Source: an uncultured Mollicutes bacterium (GTDB lineage Bacteria > Bacillota_I > Bacilli_A > RF39 > UBA660). From it: a DNA stretch of 64,000 nt. The DNA lies in contig CAMFOH010000001.1 of assembly GCA_945969495.1 (NCBI GenBank), positions 4,424 through 68,423 on the forward strand, in the 5' to 3' direction. The notes beneath the pieces were generated by a model that was given only the letters and a program-made list of their open reading frames with translations, did not search any database and had not been told where the DNA came from. Made by a program: the position numbers and the translations under genes. Every line of letters starts with the position of its first letter. The first letter of the stretch is position 1. Positions 948 through 62,335 of the stretch are shown in pieces.

Positions 948-1054
948 TAGAATTAGAGTGATAAAAAAAGTTATGTCTAATAAATAAAGTAGGAGATAGT
1001 AAAAAAACTAGCTTTGTTTTCCACACTTTTTGAATAAGAAGGGTGGTGATAATT

Positions 1055-1144
1055 ATGAGATTTAAGTTTGAAATAAAGTTAAATACAAAATTAATTATCA
1101 TTTTAATACTTATAGTAATACTAGTTATTACATATAACGTATAA
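1055..1144 (+). CDS. Small hydrophobic peptide, 29 aa (MRFKFEIKLNTKLIIILILIVILVITYNV), copy 1
   Basis: RBS aagggtggtga 6 nt upstream of ATG; charged N-terminus + single TM; followed by hairpin/T-run terminator; exact copy repeated at 1378. Confidence 0.5.
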   Translation: MRFKFEIKLNTKLIIILILIVILVITYNV

Positions 1145-1145
1145 G

Positions 1146-1182
1146 AAAAACAAGGTTAGTTTAAAAGCTAGCCTTGTTTTCT
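1146..1182 (+). terminator. Rho-independent terminator (stem caaggttag/ctagccttg, loop tttaaaag, T-run)
   Basis: 9-bp stem with one G-U wobble followed by ttttct. Confidence 0.6.
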
Positions 1183-1377
1183 AAAAAACAATCTTTGGAA
1201 AACAACTAGTTAAAGCTGTCTCCTTCATTTATATTATACAATAACAAATATTTTTATTCAATAAAATTATAAAAATTAGAGTGATAAAAAAATTTATGTC
1301 TAATAAATAAAGTAGGAGATAGTAAAAAAACTAGCTTTGTTTTCCATTCGTCTTGAATAAGAAGGGTGGTGATAATT

Positions 1378-1467
1378 ATGAGATTTAAGTTTGAAATAAA
1401 GTTAAATACAAAATTAATTATCATTTTAATACTTATAGTAATACTAGTTATTACATATAACGTATAA
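1378..1467 (+). CDS. Small hydrophobic peptide, 29 aa, copy 2 (identical protein)
   Basis: Same RBS/ORF as copy 1; part of tandem duplication. Confidence 0.5.
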   Translation: MRFKFEIKLNTKLIIILILIVILVITYNV

Positions 1468-1468
1468 G

Positions 1469-1505
1469 AAAAACAAGGTTAGTTTAAAAGCTAGCCTTGT
1501 TTTCT
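1469..1505 (+). terminator. Rho-independent terminator (copy 2 of the hairpin at 1146-1182)
   Basis: Identical stem-loop caaggttag...ctagccttg + T-run. Confidence 0.6.
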
Positions 1506-1649
1506 AAAAAAAACAAATCTGGAAAACAACTAGTTAAAGCTGTCTCCTTCATTTATATTATACAAAAATAAAATTAATATGTAAAGAACTGTTCATCTTT
1601 TTTTGAAATATAAAATATGCTATACTATTTTATACAGGAAGTGATTTAA

Positions 1650-40762: not shown

Positions 40763-40837
40763 TGCCCTGTAGCCAAGTGGTAAGGCATCGGACTCTGACC
40801 CCGACATGCACTGGTTCGAATCCAGTCAGGGCAACCA
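40763..40837 (+). tRNA. tRNA-Gln (anticodon CUG)
   Basis: 75 nt, acceptor tgccctg/cagggca, anticodon loop cuCUGac, T-loop ggttcgaat, encoded CCA. Confidence 0.85.
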
Positions 40838-40849
40838 ATAAAATTATAT

Positions 40850-40926
40850 GGCCCGTTGGTGAAGGGGTTTAACACATCGCCCTCTCAAGGCGACATTCAC
40901 GAGTTCAAATCTCGTACGGGTCACCA
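40850..40926 (+). tRNA. tRNA-Glu (anticodon CUC)
   Basis: 77 nt, ggcccgt.../...acgggtc acceptor, anticodon loop ctCTCaa, T-loop agttcaaat, encoded CCA. Confidence 0.85.
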
Positions 40927-41301: not shown

Positions 41302-42963
41302 ATGACTAACAAAGATTTGGCAGATTTAATATTTCCTAATATTACTAAAACTATAGAAGACTATGAGAAAATGTATCCTAAAAGAAATTTACCAGAAGGT
41401 GCGGTTGTAACACGTTTTGCACCTAGTCCCACTGGATTTGTACATATGGGGTCACTTCTTGCGGCTTTCATTGAAAGAAAGGCTGCTAAAGACACTAATG
41501 GTGTATTTTATTTAAGGATAGAAGATACCGATCAAGAAAGAAAAGTAGAAAACGGAATAGTTGGTATAACTACTGATTTAAAAAATTTTGGTATAGATAT
41601 CGATGAAGGGGCTATTAGTGAAACAGAAGAAAAGGGATTATATGGTCCATATATTCAAAGCGATAGAAAGGAAATATATCATGCATTTATTAAACATTTT
41701 ATAGAAAATGATATGGCATACCCTTGTTTTTGCTCTAAAGAAGAATTAGAAGATATTAGAAATGCTCAAGAAAAAAGAAAAGATAGAATTGGTTATTATG
41801 GAAGATATGCTAAATGTCGTAAAATTCCGGTTAGTGATGCTTATGAAAAAATTAAAAATGGTGAAAAATATATTATAAGATTAAAATCTAAAGGTGATTT
41901 TGAAAGAAAAATAAAAGTAAAAGATGCTGTTAAAGGGATTGTTTCTTTCCCTGAAAATGATATGGATATTGTAATTATGAAACAAGATGGACTTCCTACT
42001 TATCATTTTGCACATCTAGTAGACGATTATTTAATGCGTACGACTCATGTTATAAGAGGAGATGAATGGTTATCATCTGTTCCAGTACACGTTCAGTTGT
42101 TTGAAATGTTGGGTGTTAAGGCTCCAACATATGCACATATATCACCAATCATGAAAGAAGAAAATGGAATTAAAAGAAAATTATCTAAAAGAAAAGATCC
42201 TGAGGCAGCTATGAGTTATTATCATGAAAAAGGTATACCTACTGAGGCCGTTAAATTATATTTAATGACACTTGCAAATACAAACTTTGAACAATGGTGG
42301 GATGCTAATAAAGATAAAACAATTGATGATTTTGAATTTAGTTTTAATAAAATAAGTAAATCTGGTGGATTATTTGATGTAGAAAAATTAATGAATATTT
42401 CTAGAAATTATTTATCAAGAATAAAGGCTATTGAATTTTATGATATGTTAGTTAAATATGCTAAAGAATATGATAATGAATTTTATGAATTAATTACCAA
42501 ATATAAAGACTTTACTATAGGACTTTTAAATATAGAAAGAGAACAAAAGAAACCAAGAAAAGATTATGCTGCTTTTAGTGATGTTAAATCTCTTGTTTGG
42601 TACATGTATGATGAATTATTTGATAAACATGATAAAAACTATGAGTTTACTAACATAACTGATAAAGATGAAATAATTAATATAATGAAAACTTACGTGG
42701 AAAAGTATTATGATGAAAATGATGATCAATCTACTTGGTTTGAGAAAATAAAGGATTTATCAGAAGAATTTGGATACGCAAGAGAAGTAAAAGAATATAA
42801 AGAAAATCCAGATAGTTATAAAGGACACGTTGGTGATGTTTCAATGGTAATTAGAGTAGCCCTTACTACTAAATCGATGACTCCTAATCTTTATGATATT
42901 ATGAAGTTATTTGGTAAAGAAAAAATTATCAAAAGAATAGAAAAGTTAGAGAAAAATCTCTAA
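41302..42963 (+). CDS. Class-I aminoacyl-tRNA synthetase of the GluRS/GlnRS family with atypical HIGH (HMGS) and KMSKS (KLSKR) motifs, 553 aa
   Basis: RFAPSPTGFVHMGSLLAAF; ...KLSKRKD; longer than canonical GluRS (about 485 aa). Confidence 0.6.
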   Translation: MTNKDLADLIFPNITKTIEDYEKMYPKRNLPEGAVVTRFAPSPTGFVHMGSLLAAFIERKAAKDTNGVFYLRIEDTDQERKVENGIVGITTDLKNFGIDIDEGAISETEEKGLYGPYIQSDRKEIYHAFIKHFIENDMAYPCFCSKEELEDIRNAQEKRKDRIGYYGRYAKCRKIPVSDAYEKIKNGEKYIIRLKSKGDFERKIKVKDAVKGIVSFPENDMDIVIMKQDGLPTYHFAHLVDDYLMRTTHVIRGDEWLSSVPVHVQLFEMLGVKAPTYAHISPIMKEENGIKRKLSKRKDPEAAMSYYHEKGIPTEAVKLYLMTLANTNFEQWWDANKDKTIDDFEFSFNKISKSGGLFDVEKLMNISRNYLSRIKAIEFYDMLVKYAKEYDNEFYELITKYKDFTIGLLNIEREQKKPRKDYAAFSDVKSLVWYMYDELFDKHDKNYEFTNITDKDEIINIMKTYVEKYYDENDDQSTWFEKIKDLSEEFGYAREVKEYKENPDSYKGHVGDVSMVIRVALTTKSMTPNLYDIMKLFGKEKIIKRIEKLEKNL

Positions 42964-43079
42964 TTTTTTATTATTTTAGGGGGTTTTTAAAAGTTATGTT
43001 TAATAATTAATATGAGAGAATCTAACGTGGGTAGTAGCTTTCCATCTTTTTATAAAGAAGAAAAGGGTGGGTGATATTT

Positions 43080-43160
43080 ATGAAAAAAGAAACTAGTTTT
43101 CAAAGAGTAATAATTATCCTTCTAATTTTATTATTAGACATACTAATATTTAAAATATAA
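43080..43160 (+). CDS. Small hydrophobic peptide, 26 aa (MKKETSFQRVIIILLILLLDILIFKI)
   Basis: RBS aaagggtgggtga; followed immediately by strong terminator. Confidence 0.4.
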   Translation: MKKETSFQRVIIILLILLLDILIFKI

Positions 43161-43162
43161 AA

Positions 43163-43200
43163 GAAAAAGCGTACATACCCAAGTAGGGTGTACGCTTTTT
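43163..43200 (+). terminator. Rho-independent terminator (agcgtaca...tgtacgct + T5)
   Basis: Long imperfect stem aaaagcgtacataccc/gggtgtacgcttttt. Confidence 0.7.
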
Positions 43201-43326
43201 CCATTAGACATTAATGAAAAGCTACTAACCTTTAAGTTAGGTGCTCTTTCTAATTAAATTATATAAAAATATTAAACTTAAGTAAATAATTATTTAATTA
43301 TTTTTTATGTTTTATACTAATAAAGG

Positions 43327-44688
43327 ATGATTCATATGAAAAAAAATAATATAAAGGAGTTGAAAGGCTTAGATAAATATCAGTTAAAAGCGGTTACATC
43401 AACAAGAAAAGTAACCCTTGTTTTAGCAGGAGCTGGCTGTGGTAAAACTTTTACCATAGTAAAAAAGATAGAGTATTTAATAAAGATATTAAATGTTAAT
43501 CCAAAAAGTATAATATGTATTTCATTTACAAACGCTGCGGTTAATGATTTAAAAGAAAAAATAAATAATAAAGTAGATGTTATGACTTTTCATAAGTTAG
43601 CACTAAAGATAATAGGAAAGAAAAAAGAAGTTTTAACAGAGGATATGCTAACAGATATAATAATTGATTCATTTTCAAATGAAAAACTATATGGTTTATA
43701 TCATATGGGCAAAAGTGATATGTATGAATTAGTTAGAACCTTTATCAATTTATTTAAATCAAATAATTATGAATTAAATAAATTTTATGATTTTATAATC
43801 AAAGCAAATAGTAAAGATAAGGCTCTTTTAAAAGAAATAATGAAGTGCTACATATGTTATGAATCTTATTTAAATAAAGAAAATCTAATGGATTTTAATG
43901 ATATGATAAACATTGCGACTAATAGACTTGATGCTTCAAAAGTTAGATATAAATACATAGTTATAGTTGAGTATCTTGATAGTTCAATAGCTAAACTTAA
44001 TTTAATAAAAAAATTAGTAAAGTTATCTAATTCCAATTTATTTATGGTTGGTGATGACTTTCAATCCATATATCGCTTTACTGGTTCTAACGTTAAGATA
44101 ATTACTAATTTTAGAAAGTATTTTCCATTTGCTAAACTAATAAAATTAAAAAATACCTATCGTAATTCTAAAGAACTTTTAAAAATAGCTGGTAAGTTTG
44201 TTATGAGAAATCCTTTTCAAATAAAAAAGAATTTAAGATCAAGTATTAGTATAAATAATCCTGTTGAAATAATTTATTATAAAGATTTAAACCATGCTGT
44301 AGATGAAATTATAAAAGAAGATAAAGTTAATAATTTATTTATTCTTTCTAGAAATAATGGTGATTTAAAAAAAGTAATAATAAATGATAATGTTAATTAT
44401 AAAAAGATGAGTGTTCATAAATCTAAGGGTTTGCAAGCTGATTACGTTTTTTTAATAAACGTAAGTAATTCTTCTAATGGTTTTCCTAATAAATATATAG
44501 ATCATGAAATATTAAAATTTGTTAATAATTATAAAGAATATTATCCATACGAAGAAGAAAGAAGATTATTTTATGTTGCACTTACTAGATGTAAGAAAAA
44601 AGTATATTTATTCGTGCCAAAAGGTAATGAATCTATTTTTATAAAGGAAATGAAACAGTATAAAAACGTAATTATAAGAGAAAAATAA
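43327..44688 (+). CDS. Short UvrD/PcrA-like superfamily-1 helicase (453 aa)
   Basis: Walker A AGAGCGKT, motif III GDDFQSIYRFTGS, motif V/VI SVHKSKGLQADYVFL, YVALTRCKKKVYLF. Confidence 0.65.
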   Translation: MIHMKKNNIKELKGLDKYQLKAVTSTRKVTLVLAGAGCGKTFTIVKKIEYLIKILNVNPKSIICISFTNAAVNDLKEKINNKVDVMTFHKLALKIIGKKKEVLTEDMLTDIIIDSFSNEKLYGLYHMGKSDMYELVRTFINLFKSNNYELNKFYDFIIKANSKDKALLKEIMKCYICYESYLNKENLMDFNDMINIATNRLDASKVRYKYIVIVEYLDSSIAKLNLIKKLVKLSNSNLFMVGDDFQSIYRFTGSNVKIITNFRKYFPFAKLIKLKNTYRNSKELLKIAGKFVMRNPFQIKKNLRSSISINNPVEIIYYKDLNHAVDEIIKEDKVNNLFILSRNNGDLKKVIINDNVNYKKMSVHKSKGLQADYVFLINVSNSSNGFPNKYIDHEILKFVNNYKEYYPYEEERRLFYVALTRCKKKVYLFVPKGNESIFIKEMKQYKNVIIREK

Positions 44689-54065: not shown

Positions 54066-54140
54066 GGGGCTATAGCCAAGTTGGTAAGGCATTGGACTGC
54101 AACTCCACGATCGCCGGTTCAAGTCCGGCTGGCCCCTCCA
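54066..54140 (+). tRNA. tRNA-Cys (anticodon GCA)
   Basis: 75 nt; anticodon loop ctGCAac; T-arm gccggttcaagtccggc; CCA encoded. Confidence 0.8.
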
Positions 54141-54147
54141 ATTATAT

Positions 54148-54222
54148 GCAGGTGTAGTACAACGGCTAGTACGTGGCCTTGCCAAGGCTAAGACGTGGGT
54201 TCGATTCCCATCACTTGCTCCA
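54148..54222 (+). tRNA. tRNA-Gly (anticodon GCC)
   Basis: 75 nt; anticodon loop ttGCCaa; T-arm gtgggttcgattcccat; CCA encoded. Confidence 0.8.
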
Positions 54223-62137: not shown

Positions 62138-62185
62138 TATAATAGGTTATATAAAGATAAAGAAGCATATGGAGGATAACTTCTT

Positions 62186-62335
62186 TTTTTAGCGCCAGGC
62201 CTTTAAATAGGTGACGAGGACTATGGTTATCGAAATGTTCGGCGGATGCCATAGCGGACTTGTGAATCGTAAGAAATACTTTTAAAAGATAAAATCAAAA
62301 TTATAACAGAGAGGTATTTCACACAGTTGTTTTTA
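62186..62335 (+). ncRNA. glmS ribozyme (GlcN6P-responsive self-cleaving riboswitch)
   Basis: Core ...tttttAGCGCCAGgcctttaaataggtGACGAGGactatgg...gttcggcggatgccatagcggac... upstream of glmS. Confidence 0.85.

Follow-up and report, generated by a model that had tools for sequence, protein, structure and literature searches.

Tandem 323-nt cassettes of an uncultured Mollicutes bacterium resemble type I toxin-antitoxin modules and point to a new family

In the 64,000-nt stretch of DNA from an uncultured Mollicutes bacterium that we analysed here (the window), positions 951-1596 consist of two head-to-tail units, 951-1273 and 1274-1596, each carrying an open reading frame (ORF) for a small hydrophobic peptide and, on the opposite strand, a predicted antisense RNA gene that converges on it. 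A first-pass annotation had described two tandem 323-nt units encoding an identical 29-aa peptide, and both were indeed present, with ATG codons at 1055 and 1378; the antisense RNA gene in each unit is the half of the module that was absent from that description. Judged from its sequence, each 323-nt unit is probably an autonomous type I toxin-antitoxin-like module that combines a par/Fst-like RNA architecture with an unrelated peptide. The best reading is that the cassettes represent a new type I toxin-antitoxin-like family, and not members of the Fst, TxpA or Hok families to which the peptide had been likened.

In the mechanism that we propose, a plus-strand mRNA of ~190-200 nt would be made from a weak or non-canonical promoter and would encode the 29-aa peptide, with its extended Shine-Dalgarno (SD) sequence locked in a local hairpin. 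The peptide would presumably insert in the membrane and be harmful if over-made. A minus-strand RNA of ~86 nt, expected to be abundant, would be produced from a near-consensus sigma-70 promoter and, by analogy with par/Fst-RNA II, TxpA-RatA and BsrG-SR4, pairing would begin at the complementary hairpins of the two RNAs, leading to continued occlusion of the SD and/or RNase III cleavage of the mRNA. We infer the transcription of both RNAs, the RNA ends, the RNA-RNA repression and the toxicity of the peptide.

A peptide gene and a predicted convergent antisense RNA gene

The unit 1 ORF (1055-1144, plus strand) translates to the 29-aa peptide MRFKFEIKLNTKLIIILILIVILVITYNV, and that of unit 2 (1378-1467, plus strand) to the same 29 residues. 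The peptide has a positively charged head of alternating polar and hydrophobic residues (MRFKFEIKLNTK) followed by a 17-residue hydrophobic helix that runs to the C-terminus. A genome scan with the back-translated peptide N-terminus, from which copy counts are lower bounds, revealed that the whole cassette is conserved, with more than 50 copies in at least 16 metagenome-assembled genomes (MAGs) labelled uncultured Bacilli or Mollicutes, or Candidatus Aphodocola. Of the 117 stretches listed, about half were true relatives and the rest matched by chance, RelA/SpoT 'FKFEIKGRPKH' being an example; the matches listed did not include the window's own species. Family peptides are 26-30 aa long with a charged head and one ~17-residue hydrophobic stretch, predicted to be transmembrane, the relatives having the 27-30-aa form M[RK]F[RK]FEIK[FLI]-x-x-K followed by ~17 hydrophobic residues.

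To assess the coding character of the ORF we used 47 distinct ORF DNAs specifying 41 peptides of 27-30 aa. It can be seen that K12 is present in 40 of the 41 peptides and L17 in all 41, both positions lying outside the eight codons fixed by the search pattern, that the entropy across the helix by codon position is 1.24/0.35/0.96, and that the other two sense frames are closed in 47/47 ORFs. Searches with the leader alone also retrieved family ORFs (MRITFKISIPLKLIIILLLIIVLVLVINI and MKIKFEINFPSKLIIILLLIIALVVIINI in metagenomes, and MKQEMKFLKVIVILLILLLVILMFKI in L042), which are 26-29 aa long with differing N-termini; the conservation of the peptide is therefore not an ascertainment artefact. 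We conclude that, on this codon-level signature, the peptide ORF is under purifying selection as a coding sequence.

The cassette had been reported as lacking annotation, and we likewise saw no gene called in the region on any related contig. Ten exact-sequence look-ups of the peptides among 15 billion predicted proteins were all negative, a protein search with a 62-aa upstream-extended ORF gave no homologue, and a literature search for the peptide motif found no paper. The C-termini end in the hydrophobic helix (…VITYNV, …IINY, …LIII) with no W, PXXXG motif or charged tail. Assignment of the peptide to Fst, TxpA or Hok was not upheld, as there was no Pfam or NCBIfam match and a charged head with a hydrophobic tail is unlike Fst; the more general proposal of a toxin-like small membrane peptide fared better, being consistent with the coding signature, the varying copy number and the conserved convergent antisense gene.

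A 34-nt hairpin starts two nt after the stop codon in each unit (1147-1180 in unit 1; 1470-1503 in unit 2, from repeat analysis) and occurs exactly twice in 64 kb, with 0 occurrences expected by chance. Its 16-nt arms are 88% complementary and the fold forms about 14-17 bp, and not the 9 bp attributed to it earlier. U-rich tails flank the hairpin on both strands, being longer on the minus and poorer on the plus strand. A terminator had previously been assigned to each peptide gene as its own; a hairpin does follow each ORF, but its fold, its compensatory changes and its U-rich tails indicate that it serves both convergent transcripts as a common bidirectional, intrinsic-terminator-like element.

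Directed into the hairpin on the minus strand of each unit is a near-consensus sigma-70 promoter: TTGAAT-17-TATAAT in unit 1 (1233-1261, TATAAT at 1238-1233, a 10/12 match) and TTTACA-17-TATAAT in unit 2 (1557-1585, TATAAT at 1562-1557, an 11/12 match). The previously proposed span of the feature, 951-1565, stops short of the end of the second of these promoters, with which the feature extends to about 1585. The predicted starts lie near 1226 and 1550, and the RNA would comprise a 5' hairpin (GGAGACAGCU/AGUUGUUUUCC) and the shared hairpin, then UUUUUCUU. In unit 1 the predicted antisense RNA is ~86 nt (1141-1226, minus strand), with the 5' hairpin at 1223-1197 containing CUAGUUGUUUUCC, a spacer and the terminator hairpin, and in unit 2 it is ~87 nt (1464-1550, minus strand), the RNA ends being placed from the promoter and the U-tail. 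The unit 1 RNA folds with z = -3.4. A covariance model of the antisense RNA scored 88 bits on unit 1 and 89.9 bits on unit 2, and all matches of at least 73 bits fell at cassettes, on the strand opposite the peptide ORF; the E-values of this model are rough.

These features are shared by the family. TATAAT is found in 47/47 cassettes, within a minus-strand promoter that matches at 10-11/12 overall, lies at a fixed distance and has TTGATA or TTGAAT as its -35 element. In plus-strand order, the hairpin is followed by a variable spacer, a near-invariant GGAAAACAACTAG, GCTGCTTCC and then this promoter. When 43 antisense RNA sequences were aligned, 99.1% of cells were paired versus 45-65% in slid registers, and 47 cells were doubly changed versus 16.7 +/- 4 in shuffles, with 0/500 shuffles reaching 47; two terminator pairs switch from G-C to A-U in 18 sequences. 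The 5' hairpin varies on its 5' arm only (A-U to G.U), the 3' arm being invariant in 43/43. At the sequence level, complementarity between the antisense RNA and the mRNA is perfect over the 3' hairpin region of the latter. We conclude that each unit, as read from promoters, folds and covariation, is a convergent gene pair with one bidirectional hairpin.

Minus-strand ORFs were also considered. ORFs of 53 aa (940-1101) and 56 aa (1254-1424), antisense to the peptide and leader, and ORFs of 15-22 aa at the 5' end of the antisense RNA were rejected as coding, since they differ between units or begin upstream of the predicted start site. Any antisense frame is open in only about half of the family members, and the 53- and 56-aa ORFs are probably spurious.

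The mRNA leader and its predicted pairing partners

The plus-strand leader has the same order throughout the family: a G-rich box, an NNTAAT block, GGARGYAGT, an A-run, a box that we term box M, a variable hairpin and the extended SD. In unit 1 the conserved upstream block (953-981, plus strand) comprises the G-rich box TTAGAGTG (953-960), at the -35 position for the peptide mRNA, and a -10-like TCTAAT (976-981), and is followed by a 5' module (992-1022, plus strand) made up of GGAGATAGT (992-1000), the A-run and box M, ACTAGCTTTGTTTTCC (1007-1022), these being recognised from family conservation and, for the module, repeat analysis. The folded SD-sequestering hairpin CCACACTTTTT/AAGAAGGGTGG (1021-1046) overlaps the extended SD GGTGGTGAT (1042-1050), the two together spanning 1021-1050 on the plus strand. 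By alignment and folding, the equivalent region of unit 2 (1276-1373, plus strand) holds the upstream block, the 5' module (1315-1345), the hairpin CCATTCGTCTT/AAGAAGGGTGG (1344-1369) and the SD (1365-1373).

Variants of the G-rich box in the family are TTAGGGGA, CGAGTG and TTAGAGTG, none of which resembles TTGACA. In the window such boxes are found at 953-960, 1276-1283 and 42974-42983, and the motif AAAGTTATGNNTAAT, allowing 0-1 mismatch, at 967, 1290 and 42990 only. From its position, the upstream block is presumed to be a weak or non-canonical promoter of the peptide mRNA. We know of no alternative-sigma consensus that matches the G-rich box, which might be recognised by an alternative sigma factor or bound by a regulator.

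The sequence of box M had been seen as a half-copy of the terminator arm, hinting at repeated unequal recombination. The half-copy is real (1007-1022 and 1330-1345), being a direct repeat of the 3' arm of the hairpin, but box M is a near-invariant family element at a fixed position, and its reading as a recombination scar is not supported. The leader module at 992-1022 is, in addition, an inverted repeat of 1197-1223.

The extended SD of the family is AGAAAGNGG-GTGAT, and the leader hairpin pairs with its purine-rich half. This stretch is sequestered in 40/45 leaders, with differing stem sequences. Across the family the SD hairpin has a mean of -9.4 kcal/mol with 7.5/9 nt of the SD stretch paired, as opposed to -5.2 kcal/mol and 4.4/9 when the upstream arm was shuffled; the shuffling was confined to the upstream arm, and loops and registers differ across the family. 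Between the two units of the window the hairpin block is what differs in the leader, and the pairing is kept in both.

Because box M repeats the 3' arm of the hairpin, the antisense RNA can also pair with the leader. The 5' arm of the antisense hairpin, GAAAACAAGGCUAGC, can form 14-19 bp with the leader 5' of the SD hairpin (mean duplex z = -2.5), although the duplex folding over-extends with large interior loops and the box M core alone is credible. That this second contact follows the DRa/DRb logic of par is possible, by analogy, and not established.

The 5' modules of the leader and of the antisense RNA form an inverted repeat, so that the two RNAs are similar there and not complementary. 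Across 15 distinct pairs there are 31 differences, and in 30 of them the leader has U where the antisense RNA has C, or G where it has A. As a result of these G.U-type differences the leader's own hairpin is weaker than its antisense counterpart (-4.7 versus -10.0 kcal/mol, in 38/38), and long-range pairing of the leader with the segment past the hairpin gives a helix that is stabler on the mRNA strand (-27.5 versus -22.9 kcal/mol, in 34/38). A tentative explanation, to which we give only modest credence, is that the leader acts as a weakened mimic of the 5' domain of the antitoxin and, in some of the mRNAs, those that read through a leaky plus-strand hairpin, pairs with the segment beyond the hairpin (GGAAAACAACUAG…GCUGUCUCC) to give a stable, inert 5'-3' lock. 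The antisense RNA, being a perfect Watson-Crick match to this segment, would compete with the leader for it, unlocking the mRNA and marking it for decay. Such a lock would explain the near-invariance of both boxes across genomes, the 30/31 directional differences (the helix forming on the mRNA strand only) and the poorer U-tail on the plus strand.

An inverted repeat of this kind could instead mark transposition ends. If the units were copies of a selfish repeat resembling a miniature inverted-repeat transposable element (MITE), the ~30-nt repeats of the leader and post-hairpin modules (992-1022 and 1197-1223) would be its termini and the ORF incidental, and the many intergenic copies per genome would follow. 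However, conservation reaches 40-55 nt beyond the inverted repeats, to include both promoter blocks, and the directional differences between the arms (30/31 U-for-C or G-for-A) reflect a constraint at the level of RNA and not of DNA. The ORF moreover has a coding signature, no transposase neighbour was found, the ends of the units are fuzzy, and the same gltX/helicase site is occupied in eight species (see below). We regard a MITE-like origin as highly improbable.

Copy number, decay and genomic context of the family

The two units in the window are alike over 238 nt (98% identity) and over another 66 nt (89% identity), at a spacing of 323-324 nt. Their right ends of ~30 nt (1244-1273 and 1567-1596) are unrelated, each resembling a different family-typical right end, and the pair is therefore not a simple recent duplication. 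It is more likely, on this pattern, that these are two cassettes whose cores have been kept alike through gene conversion.

Variation among strains was followed in ten metagenome contigs that encode an identical YlmH protein, the tenth of which ends before the intergenic region. Four contigs have one unit and five have two, and in the single-copy strains the left part of unit 1 is joined to the right end of unit 2. Copy number, which the first-pass annotation had wished to see compared between strains, is thus 1 or 2 and not invariant, and the peptide is conserved in relatives. The sole variable leader block among strains, CACACTTTTT versus ATTCGTCTT, faces the SD, and pairing is preserved with either version. 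L003 and L006 have the same version of the block in both units, which points to gene conversion between the units, at least as read from these two sequences. Copy 2 carries K4R and I22M in L002, L005 and L009. Separately, a 9-nt tandem repeat, AAATATTTA (4.7 copies, 907-948), spans the stop codon of the YlmH-like gene; L003, L006 and L007 have one repeat fewer, and their intergenic region is 9 nt shorter.

The genes around the units are the 3' end of ddl, a YlmH-type S4 gene (235-927), a gene for a flavodoxin-like FMN reductase (1650-2270) and mnmA, in agreement with the S4-domain and flavoprotein genes previously noted as flanking the cassette. Since the cassette stands directly upstream of the flavodoxin-like gene, and alternative pairings are available among box M, the hairpin arms and the post-hairpin box, we considered whether it could be a cis-regulatory leader of that gene, as a leader-peptide attenuator or riboswitch. 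We find this hardly credible: family cassettes precede unrelated genes in either orientation, the flavodoxin gene has one or two units upstream of it, there is no Rfam match, and the conserved minus-strand promoter would be left unaccounted for. Rfam searches, permissive on 700-1900 and at gathering thresholds on the whole window, gave nothing for the cassette, with noise only at E<=10.

The closest relatives are MAGs labelled uncultured Bacilli or Mollicutes, and the Clostridium host that had been implied was not borne out. The window organism belongs to the same clade, its GltX being 80% identical to that of L027, and has a GC content of 27%. One MAG has at least 12 copies on different contigs. 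Copies are often in tandem, with 1, 1.5, 2 or 3 per site; arrays elsewhere include a set of three in L017, spaced by 318 nt, and a pair in L043, spaced by 330 nt. Cassettes are intergenic, among housekeeping genes (gltX, a UvrD-like helicase gene, uvrC, fmt, a DnaD-like gene and genes for ABC transporters and LemA), and around the family cassettes we found no transposase neighbour and no recurrent partner gene. Scans of viral contigs with the peptide N-terminus and with the hairpin gave 0 matches each, with no sign of phage origin. As a further observation, CTTGAC-N-GGGGGGTAATATGATATTATCAAC recurs ~150-200 nt downstream of cassettes in L016, L033, L070, L091, L095, L105 and L123 (one Mollicutes-type MAG) and in L083, and may be a repeated promoter or other small repeat element.

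The gltX/helicase junction is filled in all eight genomes seen (the window and seven others). A search for further copies, as the first-pass annotation had proposed, identified the occupant in the window as a third, divergent cassette at 42974-43290 (plus strand), between gltX (41302-42963) and the UvrD-like helicase gene (43327-44688), recognised by its architecture and a weak covariance-model match. On the plus strand it has the G-rich box TTTTAGGGGG, an SD hairpin at 43042-43070, an ORF for the 26-aa peptide MKKETSFQRVIIILLILLLDILIFKI (43080-43160) and a hairpin at ~43162-43201; on the minus strand it has a promoter TTTACT-17-TATAAT (43286->43258) and a predicted antisense RNA (43251->43156; fold z = -6.5). 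An ORF track would miss this cassette too. The inverted repeat between leader and downstream region is kept despite a different sequence, and a homologous 26-aa subtype with the full architecture is found in L042 (4670-5000).

Some copies are decayed. In L036 (3815-3960) and L089 (5893-5979) a truncated copy stands right after gltX, beside an intact cassette. What is left of it runs from the last ~6 codons through the hairpin and downstream box to the antisense promoter, the leader and the rest of the ORF being gone; from this arrangement these copies would be, in effect, orphan antisense genes. In L060 the antisense side has been lost and the SD is lost too. In a subfamily comprising L011, L074, L106, L109 and L113, the SD has changed from GGTGAT to GTTGCAG (GGGTTGCAG) and the SD hairpin has decayed with the antisense gene intact, and these may be translationally silenced copies.

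Orphan antisense genes that persist without the ORF might suggest that the antisense RNA is the main product, acting in trans on other mRNAs through its invariant CUAGUUGUUUUCC with the ORF secondary, and the fixed 3' arm (43/43) beside a varying 5' arm of its 5' hairpin could be taken in the same way. Yet the ORF has its own purifying selection and a dedicated, structured SD, and the mRNA leader has the same invariant box, as would be expected of an interaction inside the cassette; a trans-acting RNA as the main product therefore seems very unlikely to us.

Another alternative is that the peptide has a physiological role as a membrane modulator, acting for instance on a transporter or in envelope stress, and is under cis-antisense RNA control without being part of a toxin-antitoxin pair. 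Anatomy alone fits a toxin and a modulator equally, the cassettes lie at conserved syntenic chromosomal sites and appear vertically inherited, and in L102 the peptide is retained without the antisense gene. However, the family is amplified in tandem and reaches at least 12 near-redundant copies per small genome, some antisense genes are orphans, and SD and antisense gene have been lost together. Such traits are typically seen at type I toxin loci (PMC2887945) and would be unusual in a dedicated modulator. No recurrent partner gene accompanies the cassettes. On balance we consider a modulator unlikely, and favour the toxin-antitoxin-like reading.

Several observations nevertheless weigh against this preferred reading. 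The sense strand is without a consistent sigma-70 match (best 7-9/12, with inconsistent hexamers), and the two SD hairpins of the window are singly modest, 14 and 19 of 200 shuffles being as stable. The second contact between leader and antisense RNA is half lost, uncompensated, in the CTAATCATTG subfamily (~10/43 cassettes), and is therefore not essential everywhere. The sequences compared share common descent, and in most members of the family the search pattern itself dictated the first eight codons. Searches of Pfam and NCBIfam with five peptides returned noise only, with no known toxin family matched, and many antisense-controlled small membrane proteins are not toxins. Finally, L102 (7660-7900) has the peptide MRFRFEIKFSSKLIIILLIVIVLIFILVF and its SD intact without box M, the hairpin or the antisense gene; the decay patterns as a whole would fit toxin-antitoxin logic, with L102 as a counter-example to strict coupling.

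Comparison with known type I systems

The cassette can be compared with several sets of loci. Among these, hok/Sok is known for the fbi/tac fold-back of its mRNA. The cassette resembles hok/Sok and AapA1/IsoA1 in its possible long-range 5'-3' pairing of the mRNA (mean -27.5 kcal/mol), in which G.U pairs make the helix specific to the mRNA strand. It differs from them in that this pairing would require read-through of the hairpin, in that its SD is hidden by a local hairpin and not by the fold-back, and in that the antisense RNA would bind the 3' end and not the 5' end.

In RNA layout the cassette matches par-like loci. At the RNA level these loci are defined by convergent promoters, a bidirectional terminator, a second complementarity derived from direct repeats and a stem-loop that hides the SD, and Fst itself has a transmembrane helix, a conserved W, a charged C-terminal tail and a PXXXG motif (PMC7472228). 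Like par (Fst / RNA I - RNA II of Enterococcus faecalis pAD1), the cassette has convergent promoters with one bidirectional terminator and an overlap formed by complementary stem-loops (PMC7472228); it has a direct repeat that both transcripts cross, giving a possible second complementarity in the toxin leader, as well as an SD-hiding intramolecular stem-loop, a structured 5' end and chromosomal copies between housekeeping genes. The peptide, however, has the opposite layout (charged N-terminal head, hydrophobic C-terminus) and an unrelated sequence. The terminator arm itself supplies the second repeat copy, in place of the separate DRa/DRb boxes that overlie the start codon in par. The contact is situated upstream of the SD hairpin, one subfamily has lost it, and the 5' ends of the two RNAs are similar, as an inverted repeat, and not complementary.

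TxpA/RatA and BsrG/SR4 of Bacillus subtilis are likewise convergent, with a 3' overlap away from the ribosome-binding site and a partly sequestered SD, and by this parallel RNase III-dependent decay and/or tighter occlusion of the SD would be expected (PMC4147584). The cassette overlap is ~40 nt (the hairpin only), compared with roughly 75-120 nt in these systems, its peptides are half the size and unrelated, and the cassettes are at syntenic core positions and not in prophage or skin-type elements.

Occurrence as tandem, unannotated repeats is a recognised trait of type I loci (PMC2887945). Ibs/Sib, Ldr/Rdl and ZorO/OrzO (Z3289/Z3290) of Enterobacteria share with the cassettes very short hydrophobic peptides (19-35 aa) missed by annotation, and loci in tandem within one intergenic region, in 1 or 2 copies by strain, with similarity extending beyond the ORF (PMC2887945). 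They belong to a different phylum from the cassette host, and the sequences are unrelated. Sib extends over the entire ibs ORF, OrzO and Rdl either are divergent or act on the 5' untranslated region, and the cassette antisense RNA overlaps the 3' hairpin only.

Should the toxin-antitoxin-like reading be true, a clade of uncultured, small-genome gut Bacilli would carry up to a dozen or more toxin-antitoxin copies per genome, in a family invisible to current gene callers, protein databases and RNA family libraries. The type I repertoire would gain a new toxin family, and par-like RNA logic would be found to extend to a peptide whose topology is the opposite one. In ~320 nt the cassette would also provide a compact natural system in which to dissect promoter asymmetry, SD sequestration, the sharing of a terminator and the resemblance of leader to antitoxin. 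In organisms that cannot yet be grown, the cassettes could have a bearing on genome stability, persistence or phage defence and, being strain-variable in copy number, would be useful markers.

Elsewhere in the window, a glmS ribozyme/riboswitch was matched at 62180-62329 (70.6 bits), and pairs of tRNA genes are located at 40763-40923 and 54066-54219.

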